64,000 nt of DNA from Aggregatimonas sp. (GTDB lineage: Bacteria > Bacteroidota > Bacteroidia > Flavobacteriales > Flavobacteriaceae). The DNA lies in NCBI GenBank assembly GCA_965238025.1, contig OZ250162.1, forward strand, positions 969,288-1,033,287, in the 5' to 3' direction. The position numbers were made by a program, and so were the translations under genes. The notes beneath the pieces were generated by a model, which worked only from the letters and a program-made list of their open reading frames with translations, searched no databases and had not been told where the DNA came from. Shown here in pieces: positions 18,938-30,162 of this stretch. How positions within the stretch are numbered: the stretch's first letter is position 1; every line of letters starts with the position of its first letter.

Positions 18938-18974
18938 CTGCGCAAAATAATTGCGTAGTAGACTATCATATTTG
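18938..18974 (+). promoter_or_regulatory. palindromic operator plus weak -7 box (site 1)
   Basis: CTGCGCA-N7-TGCGTAG, 8 bp, CATATTTG; lies between the divergent HD-WYL and nucleotidyltransferase operons. Confidence 0.75.
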
Positions 18975-18990
18975 TATCATAATTTTAGAA

Positions 18991-19728
18991 ATGATGATAC
19001 ATAAACTTAAAACGCTAGCAACGGACAAAGGAGTAGATATACTTTTTGCTTGCGAATCTGGAAGCAGAGCTTGGGGCTTTGCTTCTCCTGATAGCGATTA
19101 TGATGTTCGATTTGTATACACCCATCCTCTAGAATGGTATCTATCTGTTTCAGAAAAAAAGGATACTATCGATTTAATGGAAGGTGACTTTGATGCAGTT
19201 GGCTGGGAACTTCGAAAGAAGCTATGCTTGCTTAAAAAGTCAAACGTACCAGCCCTAGAGCATTTATTTTCACCCATAACTTATATTGAAGAAAGCGTAT
19301 CTATTAAGGAACTTAGAGAAATCGCTGAAGATTGCTTTTCTCCTGTGGCTTGTATGTATCACTATTTAAGTATGAGCAAAAAATATGAAGAAAAGCTATC
19401 TGGTGAATCTGTAAAACTAAAGAGTTTGTTCTACGCTTTGCGAACAGCTTTGGCGGGCAAATGGATACTGGAGTGCAATACAATGCCACCTGTTGTTTTT
19501 AGCAAAATGTTATCTCTTGTAAAAAAAGATGAAGCAGACGAAATAAGAAACTTGATGGTTATAAAATCAGAGAACTACGAAAGTTACTTACATTCCAGAA
19601 ATGAGAAAGTTATAAATCTTATATCAAGTGTTTTAGTTGCTAACGAAAAGTTTGCAAAATCTCTTTCTGGAGGAAAACCTGATGCTGATAGAATAGATAG
19701 TTTTTTATATAACACCTTGACTAAATGA
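18991..19728 (+). CDS. Pol-beta superfamily nucleotidyltransferase (RlaP/YcgL-like) 1
   Basis: FACESGSRAWGFASPDSDYDVRFVY motif. Confidence 0.85.
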   Translation: MMIHKLKTLATDKGVDILFACESGSRAWGFASPDSDYDVRFVYTHPLEWYLSVSEKKDTIDLMEGDFDAVGWELRKKLCLLKKSNVPALEHLFSPITYIEESVSIKELREIAEDCFSPVACMYHYLSMSKKYEEKLSGESVKLKSLFYALRTALAGKWILECNTMPPVVFSKMLSLVKKDEADEIRNLMVIKSENYESYLHSRNEKVINLISSVLVANEKFAKSLSGGKPDADRIDSFLYNTLTK

Positions 19729-20780
19729 AAACAATAGAAGAGGTAAAAGCTTCAGGAAATATCATATTTGAATGCATTAGCGGTAGTAGAGCATACGGAC
19801 TCGCTACCGCTTCTTCTGATACCGATATTCGTGGAGTTTTTGTACTACCAAAAGAAAAATATTATTCCTTAGAATATGTGGGTCAAATAAATAATGAGAC
19901 GAACGATATTGTGTATTATGAACTTAAAAAGTTTATAGAACTCCTTTCAAAGAACAATCCGAATATTCTTGAGCTATTAAGTGTTCCGGAAGACTGTATA
20001 CTTTCTAAACACCCTTTATTCGACAAAGTAAAATCTAAATACTTTCTTTCAAAATTGTGCAAAGACACCTTTGCGAATTATGCTTTCACCCAAATTAAAA
20101 AGGCAAGAGGATTGAAGAAAAAAATCGTAAATCCTGTTGAAAAAGAACGAAAATCTGTTACTGACTTTTGTTTTGTTCGAAAAGAAAAGCGCGCTGTGCC
20201 TTTGAATACCTTTTTAGAAAATGAAGGTTACGAAGCTGCCCATTGCGGATTGGCAAAAATAAGTCACATGAAAGATTGTTATAACCTATTCCACAATCCT
20301 TCTATGAGCTATAGTGGAGTCGCTAGGGAGAACGCGAATGAGGTTTGCCTTAGTTCTATACCAAAAACAGAAGTTCCTGTTGCTATTCTATATTTTAATC
20401 GTGACGGTTATTCATCCTATTGTAAAAAATATAAAGAGTATTGGTCTTGGGTAGAGAAGAGAAATGATGAACGTTACAAGAGCAATATCTCACATAGCAA
20501 GAACTACGATGCTAAAAACATGATGCACACTTTTCGTCTTTTACATATGGCTAAAGAAATAGGAGCGGATTATAAAATATTGGTAAAAAGACCAGATCGC
20601 GACTTTCTGCTAGCTGTAAAAAATGCTGAATTCGAATATGAAGAATTGGTTGAAAGAGCTGAAAAGCTAAGAACTGAACTAGAATTCATTTATGAAAAAT
20701 CTAGTTTGATGGAAAGGCCCAATCTGAACATAGTAAATGAATTATTAGTTAACATTAGAGAAGAATTTTATAAGCAATAG
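19725..20780 (+). CDS. Pol-beta superfamily nucleotidyltransferase (RlaP-like) 2
   Basis: ISGSRAYGLATASSDTDIRGVF, NNPNILELL, YDAKNMMHTFRLL motifs; 4-bp overlap with the upstream paralog. Confidence 0.85.
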   Translation: MKTIEEVKASGNIIFECISGSRAYGLATASSDTDIRGVFVLPKEKYYSLEYVGQINNETNDIVYYELKKFIELLSKNNPNILELLSVPEDCILSKHPLFDKVKSKYFLSKLCKDTFANYAFTQIKKARGLKKKIVNPVEKERKSVTDFCFVRKEKRAVPLNTFLENEGYEAAHCGLAKISHMKDCYNLFHNPSMSYSGVARENANEVCLSSIPKTEVPVAILYFNRDGYSSYCKKYKEYWSWVEKRNDERYKSNISHSKNYDAKNMMHTFRLLHMAKEIGADYKILVKRPDRDFLLAVKNAEFEYEELVERAEKLRTELEFIYEKSSLMERPNLNIVNELLVNIREEFYKQ

Positions 20781-20785
20781 AAATT

Positions 20786-21463
20786 ATGTCGAAAGAAATT
20801 TTCATCAAAGGATATATTGAAAAGGTAAATAAAAATTATAGCTCATTGGAATACTATTTTAATGATGACCTAGTAATACTTTCTGCTCTTAATCCAGTTA
20901 AGTATGAGGTCATTAATTGTTTAATGATTGAACAGTATCAAGCCTCAGTAACACTTACCAATCACTTGGTTGAAAGAATGTTAAAACTTGCTTTAATAGA
21001 GAAGGAAATCTATGGTTTAAAAATTAGCATAGACGACACAGAACTTGAGAAGAAACTGAAGGAGGCCACTAAAAAATATGATAAAAACGTAATGTTTGAA
21101 TCCATAAAATTAGCATTCGCAGAGAACCTAATTAGTGATAAGGAGAGAGATTATTTAGATAAAATAATTAGAGATAATATTAGAAATGGTTTTTCCCATG
21201 CCGAAATGGAGAAAGTAAACAAGGGTAAACCAGAAAATTTTGAAATGCACTCCTATAAGTTCGGAGAAGTAACAGACTTGTTTAAGAATGGGAAGAAGAT
21301 TCCGAAAAACCAAATAAATGTTTCAACCCTCGCTCCTTTCATGCAATCCGAAATCCAAAAAATGAAAGCGGAAGCAATTGCATTTCCATATTTCAAATGT
21401 ATCTATACGATTGCCAAAAACATTGACCGTAGGCTTGACACTAAGAAAGAATACTACAAATAA
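20786..21463 (+). CDS. hypothetical protein with HEPN-like RxxxxH motif
   Basis: all-helical-looking 225 aa with DNIRNGFSHAE; AT-rich. Confidence 0.55.
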   Translation: MSKEIFIKGYIEKVNKNYSSLEYYFNDDLVILSALNPVKYEVINCLMIEQYQASVTLTNHLVERMLKLALIEKEIYGLKISIDDTELEKKLKEATKKYDKNVMFESIKLAFAENLISDKERDYLDKIIRDNIRNGFSHAEMEKVNKGKPENFEMHSYKFGEVTDLFKNGKKIPKNQINVSTLAPFMQSEIQKMKAEAIAFPYFKCIYTIAKNIDRRLDTKKEYYK

Positions 21464-21469
21464 AATTTG

Positions 21470-21506
21470 CTGCGCAAAATGACTGCGCACATGGAGCTGA
21501 CATTTG
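21470..21506 (+). promoter_or_regulatory. palindromic operator plus weak -7 box (site 2)
   Basis: CTGCGCA-N7-TGCGCAC, 8 bp, GACATTTG upstream of rtcB-1. Confidence 0.72.
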
Positions 21507-21595
21507 TTTCAGAATCATAAAGGAGACCCGTTAAACAGTCTTCATGTAGCGCTCCGCCGGACGAATGGAATCGGCGGAGCTAATTAAAAGAAATT

Positions 21596-29785: not shown

Positions 29786-29857
29786 AGACCCGTGATGTAA
29801 CGGTTAGCATACAAGATTTTGATTCTTGTTGTAAAGGTTCAAATCCTTTCGGGTTTT
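29786..29857 (+). tRNA. tRNA-Gln(UUG)
   Basis: AGACCCG/CGGGTTT acceptor, CAAGA-TTTTGAT-TCTTG. Confidence 0.87.
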
Positions 29858-29874
29858 CAAAATTGGTTTAAAAT

Positions 29875-29947
29875 GGTGTCTCTAGCTTATTTGGTAAAGC
29901 GTCCCACTGTGAATGGGAGGAATAGGGTTCGAATCCCAGAGTACACC
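29875..29947 (+). tRNA. tRNA-His(GUG), imperfect acceptor/T stem
   Basis: G-1 and C73, TCCCA-CTGTGAA-TGGGA; bulge or mismatch in the acceptor. Confidence 0.78.
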
Positions 29948-29954
29948 CAAAGAG

Positions 29955-30027
29955 GGAACAGTAGCAAAGATGGTCAATGCGGCGGATTGAAGATTCGACG
30001 ATACAGGTTCGAGTCCTGTCTGTTCCA
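29955..30027 (+). tRNA. tRNA-Phe(GAA)
   Basis: GGAACAG/CTGTTCC acceptor, TTGAAGA anticodon loop, one anticodon-stem mismatch. Confidence 0.82.
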
Positions 30028-30031
30028 CAAT

Positions 30032-30104
30032 AGGAGTATAGTTCAATTGGATAGAACGCTGGGCTACGAACTTAGAAATGCGAGTTCGAGTCTTGCTACT
30101 CCTA
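30032..30104 (+). tRNA. tRNA-Arg(ACG)
   Basis: AGGAGTA/TACTCCT acceptor, CTGGG-CTACGAA-CTTAG. Confidence 0.88.
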
Positions 30105-30123
30105 CTAAAGCAAAAGAAATTTT

Positions 30124-30162
30124 AACTACGCATAATAATTGCGTAGTTGTGTTTCAAATTTG
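30124..30162 (+). promoter_or_regulatory. palindromic operator plus weak -7 box (site 3)
   Basis: perfect AACTACGCA-N7-TGCGTAGTT; 8 bp between TGCGTAG and CAAATTTG; precedes the ncRNA block. Confidence 0.78.

Follow-up and report, generated by a model that had tools for sequence, protein, structure and literature searches.

A directional operator-promoter cassette and its probable WYL activator in an RNA-repair and non-coding RNA locus of Bacteroidota

The closest described parallel to the system considered here is DriD of Caulobacter crescentus, which binds the palindrome ATACGAC(X)7GTCGTAT, touches RNA polymerase through a helical bundle while bound asymmetrically, and also binds its own promoter (PMC13004042, PMC10853764). 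Promoters regulated by DriD lack a -35 element, and in all of them the DriD site overlaps the -35 position and keeps an identical distance to the -10 element (PMC13004042, PMC10853764). Among the RNA-repair systems, damaged tRNA fragments switch on RtcR (PMC7790460), RlaP enzymes extend damaged RNA 3' ends by one or two nucleotides (bioRxiv 10.64898/2025.12.29.696909), and RtcB2-PrfH repairs ribosomes cleaved by colicin E3 (PMC9223846). GOLLD RNA, which has no known function, occurs in phages and prophages, often near tRNA islands, and forms 14-mer nanocages (bioRxiv 10.1101/2024.12.08.627333). The locus considered here lies in a window of 64,000 nucleotides (contig OZ250162.1, positions 969,288 to 1,033,287) from Aggregatimonas sp., a marine flavobacterium whose 4.04-Mb genome (40% G+C) is a single contig. 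In this window, three copies of a 21-bp palindrome, each followed by a degenerate -7 box, precede RNA-repair genes and a block of non-coding RNAs. Our best overall reading, to which we give a probability of roughly 0.7, is that they are activator-dependent promoters of an RNA-repair regulon controlled by the WYL protein encoded beside them. To our knowledge the control of RtcB-type RNA repair is not known outside Proteobacteria, the only characterised regulator being the sigma-54 activator RtcR, and we know of no function assigned to GOLLD since 2009. In the literature searched we found no paper describing this regulon, a WYL regulator controlling RtcB or RNA repair, or GOLLD together with RtcB; such co-mentions as occur go back to the title of the CARF/WYL paper.

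Direct reading of the sequence confirmed the coordinates of the three palindromes reported in a first-pass annotation of this DNA, together with the offset it had claimed: exactly 8 bp separate each palindrome from its -7 box, which reads CATATTTG, GACATTTG and CAAATTTG at sites 1, 2 and 3, respectively (Table 1). The gene layout likewise agrees with its statement that the sites precede an RlaP operon, rtcB-1 and a non-coding RNA block, the last of which is indeed headed by site 3 and includes a GOLLD-like RNA. With up to two mismatches allowed, the window contains 6 strand matches to the pattern, all of them at these sites, against 0.8 expected, and none of 100 shuffled sequences equalled this count. 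A genome-wide motif scan, which the same annotation had suggested as a check, confined the strict pattern to the three window sites, all lying within 11 kb; looser core matches elsewhere in the genome fall inside open reading frames and are unrelated. We also used a position weight matrix of 37 positions, built from 87 sites that all come from other genomes and independent of the derivation of the pattern. After sites 1-3 the next-best position in the genome scored 6.1 bits, more than 35 bits lower, and is itself a reverse reading of site 1.

The link between the palindrome and the WYL gene was assessed in 61 related genomes, 14 of which encode an orthologue of the WYL protein (43-100% identity) and 47 of which do not, and in a wider survey with one genome per species that yielded more than 500 relatives of the protein, the best 80 loci of which were analysed. 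These loci include representatives of Maribacter, Zobellia, Aquimarina, Kordia, Flavobacterium, Fluviicola and Chitinophagaceae. In the narrower set the palindrome adjoins the WYL gene in all 14 WYL-positive relatives, and the pattern CTRCGYA-N7-TRCGYAS matches 14/14 WYL-positive and 4/47 WYL-negative genomes, with a reversed-pattern control near zero. When the WYL-negative matches were considered individually, the loci in G020 and G025 were found on inspection to have neither a TTTG box nor a target gene nearby and were treated as chance, and those in G003 and G016 were set aside, judged on sequence alone. With these four loose matches not counted, bona fide sites occur in 14/14 WYL-positive and 0/47 WYL-negative relatives. 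The wider survey gave 120 good sites in 78 of the 80 loci. In 66 loci a site is found no more than 130 bp from the WYL gene or from a gene for a 205-aa protein, the first site usually being 36-40 bp from the start codon, and the distance from operator to divergent start codon is 36-40 bp regardless of which of the two genes comes first. Downstream of the relatives' sites RtcB1 is the commonest gene (70 of the 120 sites), followed by RlaP1-RlaP2 (13), a non-coding stretch of 0.7-1.2 kb and then an SPFH gene (8), and an RtcB2-type gene (5, in Flavobacterium). In two relatives that have RtcB1 but no WYL gene there is no palindrome upstream of RtcB1, and the palindrome is also absent from paralogous WYL genes of about 30-35% identity; hence the motif follows the regulator and not the target genes.

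We hold it very probable from these comparisons that the three sites are the cognate operators of the neighbouring WYL regulator. Another transcription factor or an alternative sigma factor might instead use the palindrome, with the WYL gene merely a frequent neighbour, and adjacency is the only link between that gene and the palindrome. However, the WYL gene is the only DNA-binding gene conserved beside the motif, the co-occurrence pattern and the absence of the motif at WYL-less RtcB1 genes speak for a specific partnership, and a dyad-symmetric 21-mer whose geometry equals that of the DriD site fits a dimeric winged helix-turn-helix (wHTH) protein rather than a sigma factor; we regard an unrelated factor as very improbable. 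The second WYL gene of G006 (locus L035, 34% identity) is preceded, about 40 bp before its start, by another palindrome, TGTGCAT-N5-ATGCACA, which suggests that each WYL subfamily may have its own operator.

Alignment of the 123 sites analysed, 120 of them from relatives, gave the consensus CTACGCAAAAtrATTGCGyAs, followed by 8 (rarely 9) bp and then (A/C)AnnTTTG. The invariant operator positions are C4, G5, A7, T15, C17 and G18, and the half-sites, CTACGCAA and TTGCGTAG, are 8 bp long, which refines the 7-bp halves first described. Between them lies a 5-bp spacer, AAT[A/G]A, which is conserved and non-palindromic, so that the element is directional. The G of TTTG stands 16 nt past the palindrome in 90 sites, including all three in the window, and 17 nt past it in another 17 (together 107/123). 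In 113/123 sites the A-tract of the spacer is promoter-distal and the TTTG is on the opposite side, and at a single reversed site the A-tract and the TTTG are both reversed. Operator and box are one directional cassette of about 37 bp. The palindromes might alternatively be thought of as RNA- or genome-level elements, such as terminator hairpins, REP-like repeats or chance matches, and in a terminator scan the minus-strand readings of sites 1 and 3 did appear as weak hairpins. However, no T-run accompanies them, and positions 3 and 19 vary independently (A-T 56, A-C 40, G-T 21 and G-C 6 among the 123 sites), the 40 A-C combinations being mismatches in any stem. This absence of covariation removes the terminator reading and implies that the motif is read as DNA by a protein rather than as an RNA stem. 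It is the sequence and not the pairing that is conserved across families, the copies lie upstream of transcription units in fixed linkage to TTTG, and there are only three of them, clustered as described above; we accordingly leave next to no room for an element of this kind.

The promoters attached to these operators differ from the usual promoter of this organism. In the upstream regions of the genome T is the first base in 595 of 1072 NAnnTTTG octamers (55.5%), as against 25% in coding sequence, and TTG is enriched 19 nt before TAnnTTTG; the organism therefore uses the usual Bacteroidota -33/-7 promoter. In contrast, operator-linked boxes have A at position 2 in 87/90 cases and T at position 1 in only 5/90 (binomial 3e-24 against the genome), and all three window boxes lack the first T and keep the TTTG. 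With the G of the box set at -7, the palindrome spans approximately -43 to -23 with its centre at -33, and the place expected for the -33 TTG corresponds to operator positions 8-10, which read AAA. A -33 element is absent from the operator-linked promoters, the sole TTG of the operator being 13 nt from the box, which is too close, and the full Bacteroidota housekeeping arrangement of TAnnTTTG with a -33 TTG at 17-21 nt is not found. Two features of DriD- and PafBC-type promoters are found, namely an operator over an absent -35/-33 element and a constant distance from operator to -10. Both relevant statements of the first-pass annotation are thereby upheld: the palindrome covers the -33 position, as the -33 TTG that the genome places 19 nt before the -7 box would fall inside the operator, and the loss of the first T is a conserved trait. 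P1-P3 are, as judged from these features, weak core promoters with a predicted dimer site in place of the -33 element. A separate scan for sigma-70 promoters was uninformative (54 sites against 51 expected).

The candidate operator-binding protein shows the WYL domain (PF13280) at residues 155-221 with 39.4 bits against a cut-off of 21.8, and the C-terminal dimerisation domain WCX (PF25583) at residues 256-331 with 57.4 bits against 23.9. No Pfam HTH match was found in it at E 0.01, and the wHTH assignment therefore rests on predicted structure. An AlphaFold2 model built from 31 orthologues (pLDDT 79.7) has a wHTH at residues 1-81, with three helices and a beta wing, then helices at 95-164, the WYL beta domain and the WCX domain. 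When this model was compared with the PDB using Foldseek, DriD was the best match (5e-14, full length), followed by PafBC (5e-11), CapW (5e-7), BrxR (3e-6) and then the Cas13d accessory protein WYL1. A sequence search of the PDB retrieved the same proteins only at a marginal E of 0.2-0.6, so that the relationship to DriD needed the predicted structure to be seen. Invariant columns make up 53% of the wHTH region as against 29% of the rest of the regulator, in keeping with the invariance of the operator. In the helical bundle nearly every position of segment 100-117 is invariant, and the motif KEFNNRWF is invariant throughout. The first-pass annotation had tentatively assigned the palindrome to this protein and had seen in the sites a fit to WYL activators such as PafBC and DriD; the tracking of the WYL gene by the palindrome supports the former, and the predicted fold, closest to DriD and PafBC, supports the latter.

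We consider it likely, from promoter anatomy and by analogy to these proteins, that the regulator acts as an activator. A weak core, a rigid distance and a fixed orientation are what an activator needs and a repressor does not. Were the WYL protein a repressor of the CapW or BrxR type, the same operators would be occupied over the upstream half of the promoter and vacated upon a damage signal. This alternative draws on the wHTH-WYL-WCX architecture shared with CapW and BrxR (Foldseek E 5e-7 to 3e-6), on the position of site 1 within the regulator's own divergent promoter region and on the low target expression in unstressed Flavobacterium columnare described below. A repressed promoter, however, should be strong by itself, whereas P1-P3 have no -33 element and avoid the first T; repression calls for neither the rigid 8-bp offset nor a fixed orientation of the operator to the -7 box; and the best structural matches are activators. 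We judge repression unlikely.

Expression data bear on this question to some extent. A search for RNA runs of the strain itself yielded none. Runs X1, X2 and X4, which hold the window, were rejected as a source of start sites, being DNA-like with uniform or patchy coverage and no transcript ends. Metatranscriptome contigs X25-X28, from close relatives with 92-98% identity, cover 30181-31230 and 31408-31719, and the RNA block is thus transcribed in close relatives; one X28 contig ends at 30181, and such contigs cannot resolve a start site. At the orthologous locus of F. columnare, transcription is divergent in three stranded raw-read runs, and neither strand has a read across 5280-5360, the operator lying at 5306-5326. 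Reads on the target side reach approximately 5275, about 7 nt short of the predicted start near 5282, with 1-4 reads near the promoter. The depth over the targets is about 3-17 in these unstressed cells, compared with 30-100 over the regulator operon. These few reads agree with the predicted start and would fit a promoter that is not induced.

Several observations weigh against an activator-dependent regulon of this kind. The F. columnare support amounts to a handful of reads, the unstranded contigs X36 and X40 run into or across the operator in that species, and low basal expression of the targets fits a repressor as well as an inactive activator. CapW and BrxR, with the same architecture, are repressors that have palindromes in divergent promoter regions, and the sequence identity to DriD is 15-17%. 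Finally, within the RNA block a conserved U-tract (approximately 31257-31262) comes after the final GOLLD hairpin, so that read-through to the YrlA-like module and the SPFH gene, and with it their transcription from site 3, is uncertain in this genome. The features of the locus are collected in Table 1.

Table 1. Features of the predicted regulon, in window coordinates
Feature	Coordinates	Strand	Remarks
wHTH-3HB-WYL-WCX regulator (3HB, three-helix bundle), 339 aa	17263-18282	minus	Candidate operator-binding protein
205-aa protein	18285-18902	minus	Probably shares a transcript with the regulator; found in about one in four orthologous loci
Operator site 1	18938-18958	+	CTGCGCAAAATAATTGCGTAG; between the divergent 205-aa/WYL (minus) and RlaP (plus) operons, which are 88 bp apart; weight matrix 47.7 bits
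Degenerate -7 box, promoter P1	18967-18974	+	CATATTTG; predicted start ~18980; RlaP1 ATG at 18991
RlaP nucleotidyltransferase (RlaP1)	18991-19728	+	P1 unit (18991-21463); Pfam RlaP 236 bits
Second RlaP-like protein (RlaP2)	19725-20780	+	P1 unit; Pfam RlaP 98 bits
225-aa protein	20786-21463	+	P1 unit
Operator site 2	21470-21490	+	CTGCGCAAAATGACTGCGCAC; begins 7 bp past the stop codon of the 225-aa gene, upstream of rtcB-1; weight matrix 42.6 bits
Degenerate -7 box, promoter P2	21499-21506	+	GACATTTG; predicted start ~21512, giving an 84-nt leader
Conserved 10-bp hairpin, rtcB-1 leader (21512-21595)	21551-21580	+	Loop consensus GAACGnGGAGUC
RtcB-1 RNA ligase	21596-22996	+	P2 unit (21596-24768); Pfam RtcB 129.7 bits
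DUF4209 protein	22996-24768	+	P2 unit; Pfam DUF4209 40.4 bits
Operator site 3	30126-30146	+	CTACGCATAATAATTGCGTAG; 20 bp past the final tRNA gene of the array of 16; precedes the non-coding RNA block; weight matrix 47.6 bits
Degenerate -7 box, promoter P3	30155-30162	+	CAAATTTG; predicted start ~30168
tRNA-like module	30177-30388	+	First RNA of the P3 unit; blastn matches (71-79% identity) in L074, L102 and L094, in each case after a site
GOLLD-like RNA, conserved 3' domain	30780-31256	+	Rfam RF02032, 127.7 bits, E 8e-35, full model 1-416
YrlA-like/tRNA-like module	31372-31668	+	Sub-threshold Rfam matches at 31501-31668: YrlA 34 and 26 bits, tRNA 28.5 bits
SPFH/Band-7 protein	32032-33132	+	Pfam Band_7 98.4 bits; probably the last member of the P3 unit

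The non-coding RNA block downstream of site 3 is modular. The tRNA-like module also follows the operator in a Bacteroidia metagenome-assembled genome (MAG), a Chitinophagaceae MAG and one more distant locus. The conserved 3' domain of the GOLLD-like RNA is preceded by a 5' domain that probably starts near 30455; at 127.7 bits against a curated gathering score of 150 bits, this RNA is GOLLD-like and not a curated member of the family. Three congeners keep the same order of operator, GOLLD-like RNA (138, 124 and 117 bits; E 1e-30 to 1e-36, aligned over the full model) and SPFH gene, with an operator site identical or nearly identical to site 3 in its place. The YrlA-like module (31372-31600) was found by blastn between operator and SPFH gene in at least nine other genera (loci L053, L054, L062, L071, L083, L085, L092, L115 and L116), and in relatives the SPFH gene begins 657-1195 nt past the site, the interval being non-coding throughout. 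Only this genus has the GOLLD-like RNA. This distribution of modules points to an ancestral unit that seems to have consisted of operator, YrlA-like RNA and SPFH gene, to which the tRNA-like and GOLLD-like RNAs would have been added in this lineage. The genome contains no TROVE/Ro gene, and the terminator scan found no plus-strand terminator inside the block. The sequence TAGGTTTG at 31283-31290 was considered as an internal promoter and rejected; it is the 3' arm of a hairpin, CAAACC...GGTTTG, and congeners keep the hairpin and have no -7 box there.

Apart from its operator, the rtcB-1 unit carries a further conserved element in its leader, where 9 of the 10 pairs of the hairpin listed in Table 1 show compensatory changes (RNAalifold, 24 genera-spanning leaders). 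A variable first hairpin stands before this conserved second one, and a conserved GGAATCAT occurs just past the predicted start. We consider the leader a candidate cis-regulatory RNA. The RtcB1 orthologue of one congener (G006:C1:478307-479695) has an in-frame TAA and may be a pseudogene or reflect a sequencing error. Downstream of the P2 unit lie a second RtcB gene with PrfH (TIGR03072, 237 bits), a gene for a TPR protein and sixteen tightly packed tRNA genes, followed by site 3, 1.9 kb without open reading frames and the SPFH/Band-7 gene. The units of rtcB-2 and of the tRNA array have no WYL operator; two strong terminator-like hairpins with T-runs, at 24911-24936 and 28758-28784, are located within the long non-coding stretches preceding rtcB-2 and the array. 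The tRNA genes of the array (28813-30105) are separated by spacers of a few bases, and arrays of this kind also stand before the operator in L039, L040 and the distant L074. Bacterial tRNA-Leu is expected to have a long variable arm; the two array tRNAs with Leu anticodons (29555-29628 and 29632-29706) are 74-75 nt long and lack it, and the Ser and Tyr tRNAs have it.

We infer that this protein binds the operators as an activator and that its WYL domain responds to a signal of nucleic-acid damage, which brings about induction. On the model of DriD and PafBC the following mechanism can be proposed. A dimer of the regulator would dock its two winged helices on the two half-sites, centred near -33, replace the missing -33 contact and recruit RNA polymerase. 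One switch would in this way govern three units: RlaP1-RlaP2 with the 225-aa protein; RtcB-1 with the DUF4209 protein; and the RNA block with its tRNA-like, GOLLD-like and YrlA-like RNAs, probably together with the SPFH gene. The WYL domain would sense the damage signal and thereby bring about induction. Site 1, located 36 bp from the start of the regulator's divergent operon, probably serves to autoregulate it. On its minus strand the spacer of this site contains TTATTTTG, which resembles a -7 box and has its G about 41 nt upstream of where the 205-aa gene starts; this box and the fixed distance of 36-40 bp suggest that the regulator may occlude its own promoter. No Pfam or NCBIfam match was found for the 205-aa protein. 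Inside its gene in F. columnare (L081, 5626-5682) the regulator-strand read depth rises abruptly from about 9 to about 30, which hints at an internal promoter driving the WYL gene constitutively.

The content of the regulon makes an RNA-damage signal attractive. We tentatively suggest that the WYL domain might sense RNA damage products, such as cleaved tRNA or rRNA, single-stranded RNA ends or possibly 2',3'-cyclic-phosphate termini, rather than single-stranded DNA (ssDNA), in which case the protein could be the Bacteroidota counterpart of RtcR, with the GOLLD-like RNA and the Ro-less YrlA-like RNAs induced as part of an RNA-repair response. A GOLLD-like RNA under the same control as RtcB and RlaP should be inducible by RNA damage; if RNA damage is indeed what is sensed, this would provide a first physiological context for GOLLD and a way to test its function. 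More generally, a single WYL regulator, a 37-bp cassette of operator and promoter and a small, defined set of targets make up a precise and testable model for the whole phylum.

Among known systems, the functional analogues of this locus are RtcR with rtcBA, and rsr-yrlBA-rtcBA, of Escherichia coli and Salmonella. There, too, a dedicated regulator adjoins rtcB, and the Salmonella operon yields Y-RNA-like RNAs in one transcript with RtcB. However, RtcR is a CARF-domain, sigma-54-dependent enhancer-binding protein without homology to the WYL protein found here, which is associated with housekeeping-type promoters; furthermore, there is no rtcA in this locus and no Ro/TROVE gene in the genome. 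The GOLLD-like RNA resembles GOLLD (RF02032) over the whole 416-position model, including the conserved pseudoknot and 3' elements, and likewise adjoins a tRNA array. Unlike GOLLD, it is chromosomal, sits in an RNA-repair island with no recognisable prophage and has a regulated promoter of a type common to rtcB and rlaP. CapW of CBASS and BrxR of BREX have the same domain architecture as the regulator and palindromic operators in the promoter region beside their own genes (PMC11662680), but they repress defence-system promoters and are structurally less similar to it than DriD and PafBC, and the promoters described here look activator-dependent. PafBC of mycobacteria shares the WYL/WCX fold and is reported to activate -35-less promoters through sigma adaptation, replacing the missing contact (PMC13004042, PMC11804915). 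In contrast to the single 339-aa chain and symmetric operator seen here, it is a heterodimer or fusion of two WYL proteins and acts in the DNA damage response. The best structural match remains DriD, a homodimeric wHTH-3HB-WYL-WCX activator (PDB 8tp8, 9pfq) whose ligand is ssDNA. Its site, ATACGAC-N7-GTCGTAT, and CTACGCA-N7-TGCGTAG share the 21-bp 7-N7-7 register, a CG at positions 4-5 in both halves and an AT-rich spacer. Both lie over a missing -35/-33 element at a constant distance from the -10/-7 element, and both occur in the regulator's own promoter region. The two differ in that protein identity is no higher than stated above, that the promoters here are of the Bacteroidota -7 (TAnnTTTG) type, that the spacer here is conserved and directional, and that the regulon comprises RNA repair and non-coding RNAs, whereas that of DriD comprises DNA-damage genes. 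The way in which DriD and PafBC activate -35-less promoters would thus extend to Bacteroidota -7/-33 promoters, and on our best reading what is new here is that an operator and promoter plan of the DriD kind serves RNA repair and non-coding RNAs in Bacteroidota.

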